Positions 2,998 through 11,094 are shown, counted from the stretch's first letter. The stretch: 64,000 nucleotides of DNA from a virus (IMGVR_UViG_3300042318_001133:15562-79561); one strand, 5' to 3'. A program made the numbers and translations. The notes: generated by a model from the letters alone, not told the origin.

Positions 2998-3813
2998 TTA
3001 TTGGATTAAATTGTTGATCCAATCGATATTCTGCTTAATTAGCGGAAAATGTTTTTCATCGTATGGTAAATTAAAATCTACCTCCAATTGAATTTTGCCA
3101 TTTACAAGTCCTCTTCCAGAGTCATCGAAAGCGATGCCATTAATTGCATGCCAGAATGCTGTAGATGAATCATTTGTATCTGCAACTCCCAACATTCGCA
3201 TCATCATCAACTCTCTTGGATCTGCACATCCTAAATAGTGATGCTTTACTCTTTCATCGATAATTCCTTGCTCCTTTAAATATGCCGTAGCGTATGTTCG
3301 ATTGAATGAGATGTCTTCAGTTCCAGTCTTTGAACAGAATGCATTTGGAATACCCATAATACTCATTCCAATCCATTGCACTTCCTCAAGAGCCGTAAGT
3401 GCTCTATAGCAAGAGATCCATCCCTTCCAGTCTCCTTTTTGAGATTGTGGAACTGCCATCAACTTAACTGAAGGATCGAAGTAGTCGTGATATCTTTTTG
3501 AAAATGCTGTAGTTTGAATTACCGTCTTCTCCCAATGTTCGAATGGATAGTCAGGAGCAACTACAATATCTGGAGTAAATCCTGCACCTCCAATTAAACG
3601 AAACATCTCATCTGCCTCTAATGGTCTTTTGAACTCAAACGCTCCATTGTCTACGATAATGTAATCTCCCTGCTCTTTACGTTTCTTGTAGAAGTCGCAA
3701 TATGCTTTATCTTCCAGTAAATGAGCCAATAGTAAGTGAATAGTAACGTCTTTCGGTACTAAATGTAAATACGCCGTTGGCGCAATAAAACAGTGTTGAA
3801 AATTCTTTTGCAT
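2998..3813 (-). CDS. TGT/DpdA-like guanine transglycosylase-fold protein (divergent)
   Basis: Motif order IIVDNGAFE, VVAPDYP, LMAVPQ, HHYLG, DTNDSST parallels TGT/DpdA motifs (DSGxF, xxD, HxLG, DSxDSS); lies in a folE/queD/queE cluster. Confidence 0.65.
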   Translation of the reverse strand: MQKNFQHCFIAPTAYLHLVPKDVTIHLLLAHLLEDKAYCDFYKKRKEQGDYIIVDNGAFEFKRPLEADEMFRLIGGAGFTPDIVVAPDYPFEHWEKTVIQTTAFSKRYHDYFDPSVKLMAVPQSQKGDWKGWISCYRALTALEEVQWIGMSIMGIPNAFCSKTGTEDISFNRTYATAYLKEQGIIDERVKHHYLGCADPRELMMMRMLGVADTNDSSTAFWHAINGIAFDDSGRGLVNGKIQLEVDFNLPYDEKHFPLIKQNIDWINNLIQ

Positions 3814-3815
3814 TG

Positions 3816-4319
3816 CTATGAATTTAGTTTAATTAATACATTTGGTAGCATTTTGAAAACATGCTCAAGTTTATATAATCCCAGTTCAGCATCCTTTGCT
3901 CGCGCTCTCTCAAAAGAAACGTCATCTTTACGATCCGCTCTGGAATAGAATCGCTCCTTCAAAATCTCTGAAGGTACCTGCAACCAAATAGGTTGAATTG
4001 AAAGATGTATCGATTCACACTCTTCCAGAATAGCATCAAAGATACTTTCTTGACGTATTCCTTCGATGATCACTTTTCTTCCACTTGCAAGGGACTTCTT
4101 CATTTGTGTAATCATTTCAGTTGCAATCATCTGATCAAGATGTGCCGTCTCAGCTAATTTTGATCGCTCAAAGGCGCCCGATATCATCTTTACTACATCG
4201 GATGTAGTAATTTGATCGTGAGTATCTGAGAACGTCTTGCAGAACGTGTTTTTTCCACTGCACAACTCGCCACATACGAAGATGATTTGATTATTCTGTA
4301 ATTTCGGCTCCGTTTTCAT
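3816..4319 (-). CDS. P-loop nucleoside monophosphate kinase-like protein
   Basis: Walker A GELCSGKNT, IIEGIRQ, LID-like ILKERFYSRADRKDD; NMP/dephospho-CoA kinase architecture. Confidence 0.7.
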   Translation of the reverse strand: MKTEPKLQNNQIIFVCGELCSGKNTFCKTFSDTHDQITTSDVVKMISGAFERSKLAETAHLDQMIATEMITQMKKSLASGRKVIIEGIRQESIFDAILEECESIHLSIQPIWLQVPSEILKERFYSRADRKDDVSFERARAKDAELGLYKLEHVFKMLPNVLIKLNS

Positions 4320-4638
4320 TGTCTTCTAATATTGAACAGTAAACTAAATCAAATCGCTGGAATAACTCTCTTGCCAACATTTCACAGCTCATAGCTCCAA
4401 GTAAATACGATCTTAGTTGTAGGTCGAAATACTTACTCAGGTAATCTAAGATGTCGCGCTTAAACATGATAATTTCAACATCACGATCGTCGTGTGTAAC
4501 TCGCTTCTTACAAGTTACGAAAAACTTGTGGCGGTGTAGGTCACTTAAAAAGGCCACCTCAGGCAGCATCTCTTTTGCTGCAGGCCAATTATGAATTCCA
4601 TCGAACTCTAAATTGACGATGATGTTTGTTTTAGACAT
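4291..4638 (-). CDS. QueD-like T-fold paralog, candidate DpdL-type 7-carboxy-7-deazaguanine decarboxylase
   Basis: LSDLHRHKF (LxxxHRHxF) in place of QueD CxxxHGH; HDDRDVEII and SCEMLA; ATG at 4638 (MSKTNII) preferred over track start 4650. Confidence 0.6.
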   Translation of the reverse strand: MSKTNIIVNLEFDGIHNWPAAKEMLPEVAFLSDLHRHKFFVTCKKRVTHDDRDVEIIMFKRDILDYLSKYFDLQLRSYLLGAMSCEMLARELFQRFDLVYCSILEDNENGAEITE

Positions 4639-5773
4639 AGTCGTTTTCAATTAATAATTTATATGCATGTTTAATTACTCTTTGTTTATTTTTAGGATTG
4701 ATTTTAATCTTAATGCCCATCACATCTTCAACTGTATTGCAAATTTCTCTCGCTGTTAATTGCTGCAAATCCCAGAAATCTTCCACAATCGCCTCAGATA
4801 ATGTAGTTGTTGCTTTTTTGAGTGTTGTATACTTACTTTTTGGATTAACTACTGTCAAATAATCTACCTCAACTCCACACAATCTCGACAAACATATTCT
4901 CAAATCACTTGCATGTAAAGATAAGACTGAAGTATAGTCATCGTCACGATATCCTCCAAAGAGAGATAGCGTCACGGGTACGATAATTTGGTGCTCCGAT
5001 TCCATTGCAGCAACCCACGCATAGAAAATCTCTGAACATCTCAACCACTCTTCTGTAGAACACTGATGACCTAACTGATCCCATTCATGAGAATCGGCTC
5101 CATGACACCACACTACGTAATGTACTTCGTTATTCAAAAAAGCTTTCGTCAACTTTACTAAAGCCTTAGTAAAATCTTTCAAATAAGCTGCATGAGATCC
5201 TTGCGGATTGATATTGAAGGGAATTGCTTCACGTAGATCGGAAACAAACCTTTTCGAGTCTTCAATACTGTTTCCGAAGTGGCCGTCTAAATCTAAAAAA
5301 GCAGCCTTGTTGCCAGTCTCTCTATAAATTTTAGTCGCAGCAATAACTTGACCAGAAAAAGTACAAAAACCAGAACCTTGATCAGGTTTTGCGTGATGAA
5401 AGCCTGAAGTTGGACTGAATGTAATTGTCGAAGGTCTCTCTATTGCAGACAGCATCGCTTCATACAGACTTGCATTTGTGTACGTCAAACTATCAACCAA
5501 AGACAGACTCCATGGAAGTCCATTAGATTTATATTGACCTACACCAGTGAATACATCTTTAACATATCGTTTCGTATGAGCAATCTGAAAGTCTCGAGGA
5601 GTAAATGGCTCGAATGTATCGTTAATGGTAAGAAATTCACCAAATCCATTGTCGCGTAGATATTGCATCAATAGCGCTGGCTTCATTGGCGATTTCGAAT
5701 ACGACTTCTCACGAATATCGTTAGTACAGACTTGCTTTGGCGTATAAAACACCTCTATCTTGCGCGCTCTCAT
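4631..5773 (-). CDS. histone deacetylase/AcuC-family Zn-dependent amidohydrolase
   Basis: SGFHHA, GSGFCTFS, LDLDGHFGNS, HGADSHEWDQLG, LFGGY; likely start ATG at 5773 (MRARKIEV). Confidence 0.85.
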   Translation of the reverse strand: MRARKIEVFYTPKQVCTNDIREKSYSKSPMKPALLMQYLRDNGFGEFLTINDTFEPFTPRDFQIAHTKRYVKDVFTGVGQYKSNGLPWSLSLVDSLTYTNASLYEAMLSAIERPSTITFSPTSGFHHAKPDQGSGFCTFSGQVIAATKIYRETGNKAAFLDLDGHFGNSIEDSKRFVSDLREAIPFNINPQGSHAAYLKDFTKALVKLTKAFLNNEVHYVVWCHGADSHEWDQLGHQCSTEEWLRCSEIFYAWVAAMESEHQIIVPVTLSLFGGYRDDDYTSVLSLHASDLRICLSRLCGVEVDYLTVVNPKSKYTTLKKATTTLSEAIVEDFWDLQQLTAREICNTVEDVMGIKIKINPKNKQRVIKHAYKLLIENDYV

Positions 5774-5774
5774 A

Positions 5775-5972
5775 TTAGTTAAAGTAATATAAAAGTGAAA
5801 TACCAATTACTGTGAAGATTGCAGCATATACCAGTGTACGTCTGAAGGGTCTCATCAAATCTTCAATATCTTCAGATGGGCCCATTTTCTTGAAGCACCA
5901 AATAGTATCTATTATACAAGTAACAATGAAGGTTGCCAGTGTTACGATCATTACGATTGCGTTTGTTTCCAT
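5775..5972 (-). CDS. small two-TM membrane protein (65 aa)
   Basis: Two hydrophobic stretches; first gene downstream of the site B promoter. Confidence 0.55.
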   Translation of the reverse strand: METNAIVMIVTLATFIVTCIIDTIWCFKKMGPSEDIEDLMRPFRRTLVYAAIFTVIGISLLYYFN

Positions 5973-6018
5973 GTTTACGATTTTAATAATTTGTTTCGAT
6001 AAAGATACACCAACAAAT

Positions 6019-6039
6019 TAGATATACAACGTATATCTT
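6019..6039 (-). promoter_or_regulatory. promoter/operator site B (perfect 8-3-8 palindrome)
   Basis: AGATATAC-aac-GTATATCT at 6020..6038; a second TATCTTTA element lies just downstream on the minus strand. Confidence 0.65.
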
Positions 6040-6053
6040 TTAAAATGTGAGAA

Positions 6054-6100
6054 TAAAAAACCTCCCATAACTATTTTACCAGTATTTCGGGAGGTTTTTA
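6054..6100 (-). terminator. intrinsic terminator, possibly bidirectional
   Basis: AAAAACCTCCC ... GGGAGGTTTTT inverted repeat with A/T tracts on both sides, after the stop of 6108..6620. Confidence 0.7.
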
Positions 6101-6107
6101 AATGGAA

Positions 6108-6620
6108 TTATTTTATATCTTTTTCACCCTGGAACTGTCCTGCATACTCTTCCGACAATTGAGTTTCTGCCATTAAGATCTGAGCAACGCGAGATCCGTA
6201 TTCGATAGTTACAGTATTGTGAACTACCATTACTGCACCCATGAATTCAGTCTTAAATCCTGGATCGTAAACTGCGCTTTTAATTTCTACCCCCATTCTC
6301 AATAGCGAAGATCTATGTACGATCTCCGCTTTGATGTTATTCGGCAGACTGCAACCCTGATGAAATGTAATTGAATATACTCCTGGAGCAAGCGCCCACA
6401 GCTTCTCTTTTTCGTTATGAGGATTAATCATAAGAGGAACAGGAATGTATGCGGATTGATCGATATCCGATCCGCTTTGCGTTAGTTTGTGATTACCTGA
6501 GCAGATCTGCTTAACTTGATGTAGTGTTAAGTCATATCCAACTTGAGCGGCTTTTCCAAAGTGTTTAAATTGATCATTGAATACTAAAATTGATTCAATA
6601 TTTGCTGCATTAAGATACAT
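6108..6620 (-). CDS. trimeric dUTPase/dCTP deaminase-fold protein (archaeal dUTPase-like)
   Basis: GYDLTL, HRSSLLRMG, AVYDPGF, C-terminal YAGQFQGE; the deaminase Glu position appears to be non-acidic (GAVMVVHN). Confidence 0.75.
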   Translation of the reverse strand: MYLNAANIESILVFNDQFKHFGKAAQVGYDLTLHQVKQICSGNHKLTQSGSDIDQSAYIPVPLMINPHNEKEKLWALAPGVYSITFHQGCSLPNNIKAEIVHRSSLLRMGVEIKSAVYDPGFKTEFMGAVMVVHNTVTIEYGSRVAQILMAETQLSEEYAGQFQGEKDIK

Positions 6621-6644
6621 AAAACGATTCTTTAAAGTGAATTA

Positions 6645-6665
6645 TAAATATATGAAGTATATCTT
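6645..6665 (-). promoter_or_regulatory. promoter/operator site C
   Basis: Minus strand aAGATATAC-ttc-ATATATTTA, 24 nt upstream of the 6620 start. Confidence 0.6.
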
Positions 6666-6669
6666 TATT

Positions 6670-7185
6670 TTAATCTTTATCAACCCTATAGATAGAAGGA
6701 ATGTTGCGATTATAAAGGGCGTTATCTAATCCATATCCATATACCCAATCATTCTTATCTGCATTGAATACGAAGAAGTCTGGAGGCATAATTGTCGGAT
6801 CATCTCGACGAATTAATGTGCATGTAGCAATCGATGCCGGGATAGAGTTCTCGTTGATTTTTTCAATGATCTTCAACATCGTTCCTCCCGTGTCATAGAT
6901 ATCATCTACAATGATAACGTGCTGATTATTTAGATCAAGATCCCATAACTTTGTAAAGAACACATTTCCGGCCTTTTTATCTTTGCCGTAACTTGAGCAG
7001 CCTACGAAGTCGATCTTCATATCAATATGAATGTGTCGCATTAGATCTGCCATAAAAATGACAGCACCATTCAACACTCCCAACATAACAATTTCTTTTC
7101 CTTCGTAGGCAATATTAATTGCCTGAGCAACTTCAACGACAGCAGACTGAATCTCGTCTGTCGTTCTCCATTCAGAACACTTCAT
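6670..7185 (-). CDS. hpt: hypoxanthine-guanine phosphoribosyltransferase-like protein
   Basis: GVLNGAVIFMADL, SSYG, PRPP loop IIVDDIYDTGGT, WVYGYGLD, RNIP. Confidence 0.9.
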   Translation of the reverse strand: MKCSEWRTTDEIQSAVVEVAQAINIAYEGKEIVMLGVLNGAVIFMADLMRHIHIDMKIDFVGCSSYGKDKKAGNVFFTKLWDLDLNNQHVIIVDDIYDTGGTMLKIIEKINENSIPASIATCTLIRRDDPTIMPPDFFVFNADKNDWVYGYGLDNALYNRNIPSIYRVDKD

Positions 7186-7186
7186 A

Positions 7187-7819
7187 TTACTTCAAATCAG
7201 CAATGAAGCGATAGAATTCATGTCTCGTACCAATCTCATTTGTAAAGAATAGTCCAGACAATTTAGCAGTCTTCATTGTAGAATCATGTCGAACACCTCT
7301 ACATGAAGCACAAGTATGTTTTGCTTCAATCATGACAGCGATACCTAAAGCGTCAGGAACTAAATCCTTCAAATAATTATGTATTTGTTGTGTCAAGTTT
7401 TCTTGAACTTGAGGACGTCTTGAGAAGTAGTTTACTACACGATTCAATTTAGATAAGCCAATTACTTTTCCGTTTGGATTGGGAATGTATGCTACGTGAG
7501 CTTTTCCCGTAAATGCTAAGTGATGGTGTGAACACATACTTACCATTTCAATGTCTCCTTGGAATACAATTCCGTCGTAATTGTCCGTATTTTCAAATGA
7601 AGTGATTTTCGGTGGAGCTTGGAAGCATCCTTCGGCTAAATCATTTACCCACGCCTTTGCTACTCTGTTTGGAGTATCTGACGAGTGTGGATCGTTTTTA
7701 AAATCAAATCCTAAAGCTTTCATGAACTCTGCATAAGCTACTGCAGCTTTAGCGATCATTTCTGCTTTTTCTTCTTTAGTTCTTTCAATAGAACCATTTG
7801 CGCGTGTTAGCATTTCCAT
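7187..7819 (-). CDS. folE: GTP cyclohydrolase I
   Basis: [44 protein letters not shown]; real start likely MEMLTR at 7819 rather than track start 7948. Confidence 0.95.
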
Positions 7820-7860
7820 TATTACAATTTTAAGAATTACAAAATTACTACTTGAAAGGA

Positions 7861-8613
7861 TTAGACTCCTCTCTTGTCTCCATATATTACTACATGAAGT
7901 CGGTCTGTATAATTGTATCCAGATTTGGTACAAAACTCTACTAACCATTTACGATTTTTCTGAAGGGTTTCATTATCCATCCCTTCTGGCATTAGCCAGC
8001 ACTTATCGTTCGGTACATTCAGTTCTTTTTGAAGTACGAGAAATTCTTTCAAAGTCGCCTCATCTGAAATGACTGGCTTTAACTGATAATCTGGATGTGA
8101 TTCGATTAACTGCAGCATCGCTGTAGTGTTCGTTCTCCACTTCTCATGTTGGATCTTATCTTTTTCAGTTACCAGTCGATCTAAGTACGGCATAACAGTT
8201 CCTGGACGCGGTGTTGAATTAGATAGCTTCGGAGAAAGTGAAATGCAATCTGCTGATGTTTGCGCAAATTCAGATCCTTCAGTTTCGATCGTAACGTGAT
8301 GTCCATAAGTCTTCGCAATGCGACAAATTTCTTGCGCCAAATCTGGATTCATTAAAGGACCTCCACCAGTCAACATTGTATGTTTGATTTGAGGATTGTC
8401 TTTGTAGAGTTTGATGACGTCATTTAACGTCGTATTGCCTTTTTCGGGCTTCCAGCTATTATGCCAAGTGTCGCAAAAGCTATTTGCAAATTGACATCTC
8501 AATCGACATCCAGTTGTTCGAATTAGAAGATGAGGAATTCCTGTAAATTTACCTTCACCTTGAACGCATGGATACATTTCATTGATTGGTACGATTTTCT
8601 GATAATCTATCAT
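7861..8613 (-). CDS. queE: 7-carboxy-7-deazaguanine synthase (radical SAM)
   Basis: [41 protein letters not shown]; likely start MIDYQK at 8613. Confidence 0.92.
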
Positions 8614-8614
8614 G

Positions 8615-9103
8615 TTACAATGTATTAAATTTCTCTTCACAGTAGATAGCACTATTGCTATCGTTTTCAAAACACTCTACTTTAATCACCTTACAGCGAC
8701 CCGCATCTGTTTTTGATAGTACTTCATTAAACTTATCGAAAACCATCTTAGCACACGACTCTGCACCCATTTTCTCCATAAAATGAACCTTACATACACC
8801 TTCCATCTGCATTGCTTCAAACAAGTCTCTATATGGATCATTTGCTTGAATTAATGTAGTGTGATCCCACATATGATTCATCCAAGACTTTAGACCGTTT
8901 CCTACTGGAGCATCTTTAAATCCTCCAAAATCAACAATCCAATTCATGTCATCTAATTGACGATCAATTTCTGGCTCAACAGAAGCGAACCACACTTTAA
9001 ACTTTAAAGCGTAACCGTGAAGCAATTCACAGTGAGAATGAGAAGCTTTCCATTGACGAATGGCAACTGAATAGTTCTCAAAAATTTTTGTTGAAATAAA
9101 CAT
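8615..9103 (-). CDS. queD: 6-carboxy-5,6,7,8-tetrahydropterin synthase
   Basis: HSHCELLHGY, WIVDFGG, WDHTTL, GAESCA, FENDSNSA. Confidence 0.9.
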   Translation of the reverse strand: MFISTKIFENYSVAIRQWKASHSHCELLHGYALKFKVWFASVEPEIDRQLDDMNWIVDFGGFKDAPVGNGLKSWMNHMWDHTTLIQANDPYRDLFEAMQMEGVCKVHFMEKMGAESCAKMVFDKFNEVLSKTDAGRCKVIKVECFENDSNSAIYCEEKFNTL

Positions 9104-9113
9104 TTACGATTTA

Positions 9114-9605
9114 TTAAATTATACGCGTGACGCTGTCCATCGAGTATGGCTTTAACGATTCACTACCTCTTGGTTTGATAAAGATAACCTTTTTATCGAG
9201 ATGTACTTCGTATATCTCCCCAATTATAATTTGCTCTTCGCAGAACACCTTTACTTCTGCACCTTTTGCGTAGTAATTTTCAACATCTAAATGATGTAGT
9301 GCTTGTTTATCTTTTTCATCACGATAAACGAAATTTGGTAAACCTTTCTCTTGGAAAAGTCTTCTATAGAGCGCTTGCTTGATCTCTGGACTTGTGAAAA
9401 GAGAAGGTAGGACGTTACGCACCGCAATGTCTTGAATCTTTTGCTTTTTGTGAAGCATTACTTTTGTATAGTATGCTTTATCTTTTTGTTTGGGATAGAT
9501 TTTTCGCCTCAACTCTACCGTCAAATACTCAAGTTGAAGAATTTCAAGAAACTCATAAATTGAGAGATGACGAGTTTTCGATGTTGCTATTTTACTATTT
9601 TCCAT
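9114..9605 (-). CDS. hypothetical protein (163 aa)
   Basis: Co-oriented ORF between primase and queD; C-terminal SH3-like beta region possible. Confidence 0.7.
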   Translation of the reverse strand: MENSKIATSKTRHLSIYEFLEILQLEYLTVELRRKIYPKQKDKAYYTKVMLHKKQKIQDIAVRNVLPSLFTSPEIKQALYRRLFQEKGLPNFVYRDEKDKQALHHLDVENYYAKGAEVKVFCEEQIIIGEIYEVHLDKKVIFIKPRGSESLKPYSMDSVTRII

Positions 9606-9607
9606 GA

Positions 9608-10639
9608 TTACAATTTTTTCTGTACTTTATTAATGCTAAAATCAAGCGGTGATTCGAGCGACGCTAAAATTAATAATAATTCTTCTAAATCCAAATCTCC
9701 TGGATCGCAAGTTGAAGTAAATCCAACCTCAACTCGAGAAAATCTTTTAGTTAATTCAAATGCGTACTTTTTACTTGAATCGACTGCATCTGGATCGTAG
9801 AGTAAGATGACGTGATCGATTCCCTTATTGTATAGTTTTTGAATTTGATATTCACTTAACTTTTTACCAAAACTACAAATGCATTTGATGCTGGGATCAC
9901 TATACAATTCAAGCAATTTATCGACATTGGTCTTATCAAAGAAACCCTCCACAATAATGACTACTTCAGTTTCACTAACAATTTCATCAATCCCCATCAA
10001 CAACTTACCAAAGTCTGTATTTACTGAGTTTTGATATCTGATGTGTCGCTGTTTTGATCCCTGCTCCTTTTTCTTGTTATTGTATTGATCTATCCAAGCC
10101 TTTGAACGAATACTTCGACCTACAAACCCTTTACATTCCCCATCCTCTAAAATCAGGGCAACTACATAATCTTTGAAAGATCTCAATAGCGAAGTCCTAC
10201 CGATCTGGTATTGATTAAATTGCTCATCGACAAAGCCTCGCTCGCGCAAATACTCATCTTCAAAGCATCTTCTCCATCCAAGTGGAGGAGTTTTTTTAGG
10301 TACTGAAAGATCTAATGGCTCAACAACAACTCTCGATACACGCTTCTCGATCTTCTTTTCAAGTAAGGATCCAACTGCAACTTCACGTCCGAAGTCGATA
10401 AGGTTTAACTTACCGAGCTTTGCAAAAAGTTTACGGATTCGTCCATTTTCACCGCACTTCTTACATTCCCAAAACCAAGACAAATTATCGCCACGCTCAT
10501 TACGCTTTGTAGTTTCTCTTTGAACGTAGAGGTGATTTGCACTTTCGCAAAATGGACAAGTAGCGACATAGTGCGTTCCTGTTCCATTTTTCGAAACGTC
10601 GGTTAAATTTTCGTAAACGATCGAATCCGTAACTCTCAC
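9608..10639 (-). CDS. DNA primase (Zn-binding + TOPRIM)
   Basis: CPFC...ECKKCG zinc motif; IIVEGFFD and LLYDPDA TOPRIM acidic motifs. Confidence 0.88.
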   Translation of the reverse strand: MRVTDSIVYENLTDVSKNGTGTHYVATCPFCESANHLYVQRETTKRNERGDNLSWFWECKKCGENGRIRKLFAKLGKLNLIDFGREVAVGSLLEKKIEKRVSRVVVEPLDLSVPKKTPPLGWRRCFEDEYLRERGFVDEQFNQYQIGRTSLLRSFKDYVVALILEDGECKGFVGRSIRSKAWIDQYNNKKKEQGSKQRHIRYQNSVNTDFGKLLMGIDEIVSETEVVIIVEGFFDKTNVDKLLELYSDPSIKCICSFGKKLSEYQIQKLYNKGIDHVILLYDPDAVDSSKKYAFELTKRFSRVEVGFTSTCDPGDLDLEELLLILASLESPLDFSINKVQKKL

Positions 10640-11094
10640 TATTTTCCAGTTGAACCAAATCCACCCTCTCCTCGATTCGTGTCTCCTAAAGAGTCAACTT
10701 CCTCTAATTCAATTACTGGGCATGGTAAAATAATTAACTGAACACACTTTTCTCCTACAGCGTATTCTTGTATGTCGAATTGTGCATCTTGATCATTTTC
10801 ATCAAAATTGCGCCACGGCGTTCTTATGAAGCGAGCCTTAACGTCACCTCTATAATCTGAGTCGATAATTCCAACGGAATTCTTCAACATTAAATCCTTT
10901 TTCGTTACAGAGCTACGTGGCACCAACATTCCAAAATAACCTTCTGGAATTTCAACTGCAATGTTTGTATTTATTTCGATAAATTGACTCTCTATCGAAA
11001 TCGATGTTGCGAACAAATCAAATGCCGCAGATCCTACTGTAGACCTTACTGGAGTAACTGCAGCAACGTCTGTTTTTTTAAACTTCAACTTCAT
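10639..11094 (-). CDS. dut: dUTPase (canonical trimeric)
   Basis: AAFDL, PRSS, NSVGIIDSDYRG, VQL, RGEGGFGSTG: all five motifs. Confidence 0.96.
   Translation of the reverse strand: MKLKFKKTDVAAVTPVRSTVGSAAFDLFATSISIESQFIEINTNIAVEIPEGYFGMLVPRSSVTKKDLMLKNSVGIIDSDYRGDVKARFIRTPWRNFDENDQDAQFDIQEYAVGEKCVQLIILPCPVIELEEVDSLGDTNRGEGGFGSTGK

Follow-up and report, generated by a model that had tools for sequence, protein, structure and literature searches.

We analysed a 64,000-nucleotide stretch of viral DNA (IMGVR_UViG_3300042318_001133:15562-79561, hereafter the window), which corresponds to bases 15562-79561 of a 79,561-bp IMG/VR virus record with an estimated completeness of 76%. Open reading frame (ORF) calling placed every gene of the window on the minus strand. 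In transcriptional order, the genes are terminase, DnaB, canonical dUTPase, primase, an ORF of 163 amino acids (aa), an island of 7-deazaguanine genes, three further ORFs and the DnaE-type replicative polymerase. The island itself consists of QueD, QueE, FolE, an Hpt-type phosphoribosyltransferase (PRTase), a dUTPase/DCD-fold gene, a 65-aa ORF, an HDAC-fold gene, DpdL, a kinase and DpdA3 (Table 1). A preliminary description of the window had listed nine co-oriented genes between primase and dnaE, and all nine are present, on the minus strand and at the same coordinates. Our analysis leaves about an even chance that the island encodes a phiST-type system for the complete replacement of guanine by 7-deazaguanine in which bases are exchanged in connection with the nucleotide pool rather than on finished DNA.

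Table 1. Features of the 7-deazaguanine island and of the neighbouring replication genes (positions in the window).
Feature	Position	Strand	Evidence
QueD (CPH4 synthase), variant motif CxxxHGY	8615-9103	minus	PF01242 E 9e-11
QueE (radical-SAM 7-carboxy-7-deazaguanine (CDG) synthase)	7861-8670, likely start 8613	minus	PF04055; QueE NCBIfam models
FolE (GTP cyclohydrolase I)	7187-7948, likely start 7819	minus	PF01227 E 9e-49
Hpt-type 6-oxopurine PRTase	6670-7185	minus	PF00156 E 4e-19
Second dUTPase/DCD-fold protein, predicted deoxynucleoside triphosphate (dNTP) pyrophosphatase	6108-6620	minus	PF22769 E 1.5e-11
Hairpin and U-run, terminator-like	6055-6099	minus	-18.5 kcal/mol, z -4.56
65-aa hydrophobic ORF	5775-5972	minus	ORF list
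HDAC-fold Zn amidohydrolase	4631-5773	minus	PF00850 E 1e-20
DpdL, 119 aa, QueD-fold paralog, proposed CDG decarboxylase	4291-4650	minus	motif and AlphaFold model
AAA_18 P-loop nucleoside monophosphate (NMP)-kinase-like protein	3816-4319	minus	PF13238 E 3.5e-9
DpdA3, 271 aa, compact TGT-fold transglycosylase	2998-3813	minus	tblastn and AlphaFold model
Primase	9608-10639	minus	gene call
Canonical dUTPase	10639-11094	minus	PF00692 E 3e-17; TIGR00576 E 6e-29
DnaE-type replicative polymerase, N-terminal part	2-1279	minus	PF02811

The 271-aa product of the last island gene has no Pfam match. By tblastn, it shares 28% identity with phiST gp042 (CGPG_00065) across 91% of the query and 27% with a protein of Flavobacterium phage immuto annotated as 'DNA guanine transglycosylase', and a profile of its family picks up CP220 CPT_0056 at E 7e-10. 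The best Foldseek match of its AlphaFold model (pLDDT 94) is the Z. mobilis TGT (E 2.5e-8, probability 1.0). Two Asp residues, D55 of the DNGAFE motif and D215 of the NDSS motif, do not vary among 22 homologs and are conserved in 83; they were assigned to the TGT Asp pair (general acid/base and nucleophile) by motif likeness and not by superposition. The protein is DpdA3, and its exchange activity is predicted.

The 119-aa protein likewise has no Pfam match. Its motif LSDLHRHKF fits the signature LxxxHRHxF, which in DpdL replaces the QueD motif CxxxHGH (PMC10516641), and 61 of the 67 members of its family fit the signature as well. It is 34% identical to phiST gp040, and it is found together with DpdA, FolE, QueD and QueE in a record without QueC. 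Profile-profile comparison linked it to QueD only weakly, at 48% probability and through the C-terminal part alone, and comparison of its profile with solved structures gave only noise. The fold was therefore settled by structure prediction: the AlphaFold model has a pLDDT of 95, and its best Foldseek matches are PTPS 2oba and E. coli QueD 4ntk (E 2.6e-5 to 1e-4). The protein is DpdL, with a predicted decarboxylase function. In one close relative (L116:9193-10059), a Cys-rich N-terminal extension of ~170 aa is fused in frame to DpdL.

For the remaining base-synthesis genes, FolE gives the clearest family match (NF006824, E 6.7e-52). QueE has five QueE NCBIfam models as its best matches (E down to 1.6e-17), all under the cut-off. 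The likely starts in Table 1, which give proteins of 250 aa for QueE and 210 aa for FolE, were taken from the gene calls in a 95%-identical relative (L086). The best NCBIfam match of QueD is TIGR03367, again under its cut-off, and its motif reads CxxxHGY and not the canonical zinc-binding and catalytic CxxxHGH; the same change is found in 38 of the 44 QueD genes of DpdA3 loci. We infer from its context that the protein works as QueD. The absence of queC from the window, which had been noted before, extends to the whole 79,561-bp record at its estimated 76% completeness, and the phage therefore cannot make preQ0.

Cellulophaga phage phiST offers the closest comparison. Its DNA contains no detectable dG, which is replaced to 100% by 2'-deoxy-7-deazaguanosine (dDG), as measured by liquid chromatography-mass spectrometry (Cui, Hutinet et al., NAR 2023, PMC10516641). 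The phiST genes follow the order QueD, QueE, FolE, MazG-type NTP pyrophosphatase, DpdL, AAA_18 'ATPase', DpdA3, small ORF and DnaE. The two phages thus share the gene order from QueD to DnaE, the adjacency of DpdL, AAA_18 kinase and DpdA3, the DpdL signature, the lack of QueC and the DnaE-type polymerase downstream, and both genomes carry RecA and a DEDDh exonuclease. They differ in that protein identities are just 27-51%, that the pyrophosphatase is of the MazG type in phiST and of the dUTPase/DCD fold here, and that the window island adds an Hpt-type PRTase and an HDAC-fold gene, whereas the phiST island has no PRTase. Because it is syntenic with the phiST island, the window island is, by gene content and order, a member of the published phiST-type DpdA3/DpdL system for dDG.

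The presence of DpdL and the absence of QueC lead us to predict 7-deazaguanine (DG) as the base product in the DNA, and we hold this to be probable. The que genes might instead merely raise queuosine precursors for host tRNA and leave the phage DNA unmodified, as has been suggested as a possibility for phages without DpdA (PMC6884629). The window encodes DpdA3 and DpdL, lacks the QueC needed for phage preQ0 and is syntenic with a phage whose DNA is fully substituted (PMC10516641); this explanation is very improbable.

Three further island genes are predicted to handle nucleotides. The DCD-fold protein has 9w59, a 'probable dUTPase', as its best PDB match (E 2.4e-9) and an archaeal-type dUTPase model, NF002598, as its best family match (E 1.6e-23, under the cut-off). 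Motifs of the types DL, RSS, YDPGF, RVAQ and YxGQFQG are present and are conserved across its 83-member family. At the deaminase position, the family does not conserve a Glu, and the best matches of the window protein are non-deaminating dUTPases. The gene had been called spare, and this is borne out by the canonical dUTPase upstream of the primase. Since a true dUTPase is already encoded, the DCD-fold protein likely acts on a dNTP other than dUTP.

The PRTase matches HGXPRT 1hgx at E 9e-26 and keeps the catalytic Asp in its phosphoribosyl pyrophosphate (PRPP) motif, DDIYDTGGT. It scores 126 bits against TIGR01203, for which the equivalog cut-off is 150, and the Lys that contacts O6 is changed to Arg. 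We considered this change as a sign of a 7-deazapurine substrate and did not accept it, because Arg is a conservative substitute for Lys and the enzyme retains its catalytic Asp. The PRTase of the window is Hpt-like, those of 15 other DpdA3 loci and of immuto resemble Gpt/XGPRT, and all of them keep the Asp of the PRPP motif; by sequence type, they are ordinary guanine-salvage enzymes. The kinase is 33% identical to phiST gp041 and shows a weak match to adenylate kinase.

A megablast comparison of the island with phage records returned no matches, and relatives emerged at the protein level only. Relatives of DpdA3 comprised 283 protein clusters and were found on 455 IMG/VR contigs. ORFs from 86 loci were grouped into clusters, from which we derived family hidden Markov models (HMMs) for the counts; a locus was regarded as well flanked if DpdA3 was preceded by at least 5 kb and followed by at least 3 kb of sequence (n = 27). 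DpdL is present in all 27 well-flanked loci, FolE or FolE2 in 26, QueE in 25 and QueD in 24. A dNTP hydrolase is also found in 27 of 27 (DCD-fold in 26, MazG-type in phiST), and so is a kinase-type gene, as a P-loop kinase (AAA_18 or DNMK) in 14 loci, as DUF3310 in 11 and as a fusion in 2. P-loop kinase and DUF3310 are mutually exclusive across these loci. The DUF3310 protein, which we take to be of the T7 gp1.7 type, matches several PHROGs named 'nucleotide kinase'. A PRTase from one of two families occurs in 17 of the 27 loci, and the other 10 have none.

The kinase-type gene directly adjoins DpdA3 in 65 of 76 loci. One fusion joins DpdA3 to DUF3310 in a protein of 422 aa (Rhizobium phage RHph_I1_18 EVB91_073, L005:7001-8269), and the other joins an AAA_18 kinase to FolE (370 aa, L014:6726-7838). 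Fused forms of DpdA3 with at least 476 aa were not found, the 422-aa protein being the sole one seen. The partners also vary in family and arrangement. MA9V-3 has a DCD-fold gene and an AAA_18 kinase, and in Vibrio and Aeromonas phages DpdA3 is followed by DNMK and then by the DCD-fold gene. Hydrolases of four folds (DCD-fold, MazG, PRA-PH and HD) and kinase-type genes of five families (AAA_18, AAA_28, AAA_33, DNMK and DUF3310) were found with DpdA3.

As a control, we used 17 DpdA1 loci of the type found in Enterobacteria phage 9g. FolE, QueD and QueE are present in them, and scanning with the HMMs built from the DpdA3 loci detected no dNTP hydrolase, kinase, PRTase or DpdL. Phage 9g resembles the window in combining FolE, QueD and QueE with a compact, Zn-less TGT-fold transglycosylase beside replication genes. 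It differs in its partners and in that its replacement, proposed to be post-replicative, is partial. Phage 9g replaces up to 27% (PMC6884629); DpdA1 phages in general replace 0.1-30%, and only DpdA3 phages reach 100% (PMC10516641).

Other DpdA3 phages with complete replacement show a similar set of partners. In immuto, an NTP hydrolase (PRA-PH) and a P-loop kinase (AAA_28) flank DpdA3 and a Gpt-type PRTase is present too, whereas in CP220 an HD-AAA_33 fusion and an AAA_28 protein are the flanking genes. Besides these families, they differ from the window in their polymerases and in their final bases, the latter because QueC/QueF/DpdN or a QueC variant is present and DpdL is absent. All three lineages with a measured replacement of 100% (phiST, immuto and CP220) carry the hydrolase and kinase set.

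These comparisons bear on several earlier claims. The composition of the island recurs in relatives and is absent from the 17 control loci, as expected if it is not due to chance, and the extra nucleotide enzymes are not incidental to it. The survey also failed to refute the linkage of hpt and kinase genes to que genes that the preliminary description had supposed for relatives. Judged by gene co-occurrence, DpdA3, the hydrolase and the kinase-type gene are the constant core of the 27 loci, and the PRTase is frequent yet dispensable. This pattern of core and accessory genes fits a role of DpdA3 as the main installing step and of Hpt as a guanine sink or recycler better than it fits synthesis of 7-deaza-GMP by Hpt with DpdA confined to residual G.

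From the observed gene identities, folds, synteny and co-occurrence, we infer the following mechanism. FolE, QueD and QueE would convert GTP to CDG, and DpdL, whose function is predicted, would strip the carboxyl group to yield 7-deazaguanine. The spare dUTPase-fold pyrophosphatase would hydrolyse dGTP to dGMP, and would thereby both remove dGTP and supply the substrate on which DpdA3 would swap guanine for 7-deazaguanine. The adjoining kinase would phosphorylate the product, a host kinase would give the triphosphate, and the phage DnaE would polymerise 7-deaza-dGTP into DNA. The Hpt-type PRTase would clear the released guanine, a competitor that could be re-inserted, and convert it to GMP, on the way back to the GTP from which FolE starts.

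The separate parts of this mechanism differ in strength. We slightly favour the view that base exchange includes some step at the nucleotide level. That dGMP is the substrate of DpdA3 is put forward more tentatively, at somewhat less than even chances. We give a similarly guarded estimate to the wider proposal that DpdA3, in a closed pre-replicative cycle with a dGTP pyrophosphatase, a dedicated dNMP kinase and a PRTase that recycles guanine, may be the first TGT-fold enzyme to exchange a base on a free deoxynucleotide (dGMP to 7-deaza-dGMP).

A comparable logic is reportedly found in the Z-genome cluster of cyanophage S-2L (MazZ, PurZ and DatZ), where an NTP pyrophosphatase is said to yield the dNMP substrate and to remove the canonical dNTP. 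If our favoured mechanism holds, the two systems would be alike in that the base is remade at the nucleotide level and a polymerase then builds a fully substituted genome. The enzymes are unrelated, a PurA-like ligase builds the base in S-2L whereas a transglycosylase would exchange it here, and the island is not a member of that family. A nucleotide-level cycle would also explain why 100% replacement is reached only with DpdA3 and why DpdL and DpdA3 alone produced no dDG in E. coli (PMC10516641).

The preliminary description had assigned the installing step differently. Spelled out for this phage, Hpt would join 7-deazaguanine or CDG to PRPP and so make 7-deaza-GMP, the kinase and the phage class II ribonucleotide reductase (RNR) would lead on to 7-deaza-dGTP, the dUTPase-fold enzyme would remove dGTP, and DpdA3 would edit residual G. 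Phosphoribosyltransferases that act on 7-deazaguanines exist, namely ToyH and TubE in the synthesis of toyocamycin and tubercidin by Streptomyces, and they give this route a precedent. PRTases of two families accompany DpdA3 in most of the well-flanked loci, and the phage does encode a class II B12-type RNR, outside the window (G000:C1:1240-3228 of the whole record; RNR_Alpha E 1.4e-39 in the Pfam scan), although a PF02867 search of the genome scored the same ORF at just 11 bits, below the threshold. The distribution of the genes points the other way. The PRTase is dispensable, as phiST reaches 100% dDG without one in its island and 10 of the 27 loci do without it, so that the least conserved gene would perform the committed step and the universal DpdA3 would be left with a minor role. 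The PRTases are moreover ordinary Hpt or Gpt salvage types that keep the catalytic Asp, a residue serving N7, and this atom is missing from 7-deazaguanine. Among the partner kinases are dNMP-kinase families and not GMP kinases, and a path through ribonucleotides would flood RNA with 7-deaza-G. We regard this route as quite unlikely, and the earlier assignment of roles to Hpt and DpdA was not upheld.

The published model is a more serious rival to our favoured cycle, and even so we rate it as rather unlikely. Cui et al. proposed for DpdA3 that DNA is copied with dGTP and that the enzyme then exchanges every G (PMC10516641); the partner genes would give general support to the nucleotide pool and recycle the released guanine to GTP for FolE. 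Polynucleotides are the substrates of every known TGT and DpdA enzyme (PMC10164549), and PRTases of the guanine type suit guanine recycling equally well. This model leaves unexplained why a hydrolase and a kinase-type gene occur with DpdA3 in 27 of 27 loci and never with DpdA1, why several partner kinases come from deoxynucleotide-kinase families, and why one kinase-type domain is fused to DpdA3. To our knowledge, the other complete base replacements of phages (hydroxymethylcytosine in T4, the Z genome and the deoxyuridine phages) are all made at the nucleotide level, which also counts against it. DpdA3 has been active in none of the heterologous tests so far, and in E. coli its combination with DpdL left the DNA unmodified (PMC10516641).

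Several points weigh against a nucleotide-level exchange by DpdA3. We know of no TGT-family enzyme that acts on a mononucleotide. The window kinase is a generic AAA_18 protein whose sequence does not indicate its specificity, and in L087, a 57%-identical relative, no kinase was called within the 16.8 kb fetched around DpdA3. Charge and loss of the zinc site fail to separate DpdA3 from the DpdA1 of phage 9g, which is equally compact and whose DNA is modified. The isoelectric point was rejected as a proxy for DNA binding, since DpdA3 is acidic (median 5.35) yet 9g DpdA1 is too (5.64), and the lost zinc site (CxCxxC...H) was rejected as a sign of a substrate other than DNA, since 9g DpdA1 lacks it as well. 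The DpdA1 control is narrow (9g-like phages, scanned only with HMMs from DpdA3 loci), and the 27 DpdA3 loci are not phylogenetically independent. For these two reasons, the non-orthologous replacement of partners, which argues for function and not ancestry, is a stronger argument than the counts. Finally, the published proposal is itself a post-replicative exchange by DpdA3, and the CDG decarboxylase activity of DpdL is a prediction for every member of the family (PMC10516641).

The combination of genes had been thought undescribed, and this holds only in part. The island belongs to the published phiST-type system, and the accessory genes are likewise present in the published genomes of phiST, immuto and CP220. 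For Campylobacter phages, a modified-dGTP route was once suggested (Crippen 2019, as cited in PMC6884629); the idea was set aside once DpdA3 had been found, and DpdA3 modification was concluded to be post-replicative (PMC10516641). What stands is that the 2023 phiST paper never mentions a kinase or a phosphoribosyltransferase (PMC10516641), and that no report of a nucleotide-level DpdA3 route was found in the literature searched.

Many restriction and CRISPR defences fail against DNA in which a canonical base has been completely replaced. The post-replicative model for DpdA3 has no biochemical support, and its minimal set of DpdL and DpdA3 did not work in E. coli; the hydrolase, kinase and PRTase partners that are conserved with DpdA3 provide a concrete, testable gene list for reconstitution. 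If true, a nucleotide-level swap would be a new way to make non-canonical DNA and would add a new class of substrate for the TGT fold, and the published post-replicative model for the DpdA3 subfamily would be overturned. It would moreover make 7-deaza-dGTP accessible by enzymes, and this compound already serves as a reagent in sequencing and in the polymerase chain reaction on GC-rich templates.

The island is probably organised as two transcription units, split after the DCD-fold gene, because a stable hairpin with a U-run lies directly 3' of that gene; in the folding analysis, none of 200 shuffled sequences was as stable. Within the second unit, the HDAC-fold gene, DpdL and the kinase overlap one another, and DpdA3 abuts the kinase. 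The 65-aa ORF, which has two hydrophobic stretches, sits between the hairpin and the HDAC-fold gene; its stop overlaps the likely HDAC start (TAATATG), and no counterpart was called in the closest relative, L086.

The active site of the HDAC-fold protein is intact, with GFHHA (HH dyad), DLDGHFGN (DxDxH), GADSHEWDQLG and GGY aligned to an HDAC structure; these motifs comprise the His-His dyad, the Asp-His-Asp zinc ligands and the catalytic Tyr. We considered it as a core enzyme of the pathway and rejected this, since the gene is absent from 80 of 80 IMG/VR DpdA3 loci and from phiST and stands in unrelated contexts in other phages. It occurs with DpdA3 only in the closest relatives, L086 (DpdA3 95% identical) and L116 (DpdA3 ~73%), both of which retain the complete arrangement of the island. 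Metagenomes contain a large family of such proteins (1,119 homologs at E <=1e-10). Homologs with 50-60% identity are common in other phages (L114:6001-6960, L115:164-1162 and L090:9001-9939). They adjoin class II RNR, UvrD and DNMK or lie near ThyX, one is in a 636-kb huge phage, and no deazaguanine genes were seen near them. From this distribution, we read the HDAC-fold protein as a lineage-specific accessory outside the conserved pathway.

Four ORFs around the island have no family match: the 163-aa ORF between primase and QueD (9114-9605) and three ORFs of 157, 165 and 205 aa between DpdA3 and DnaE (1282-2911). L086 keeps all four, equivalents in size and order were called in L116, and the 157-aa one matches L007 and L087. 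The full DnaE has 1145 aa (G000:C1:13403-16840 in the whole record), and Pfam labels on its L086 homolog agree with the assignment. The RNR gene adjoins a UvrD helicase gene, and an SbcC-like ATPase and RecA lie further along the record.

Many of the T4-like DpdA3 loci carry, between DpdL and DpdA3, a macro-domain ('Appr-1-p processing') gene (L005:5338-6162) or co-clustering short ORFs (cluster c9, e.g. L026:9476-9939). A peptide deformylase gene (L026:5762-6292, cluster c13) lies near QueE in T4-like loci, mostly on its upstream side. The islands of relatives have also been invaded by mobile endonuclease-like sequences, as seen in the DpdL extension of L116 and in L087, where two LAGLIDADG genes (4379-5053 and 6994-7614) stand among the que genes.

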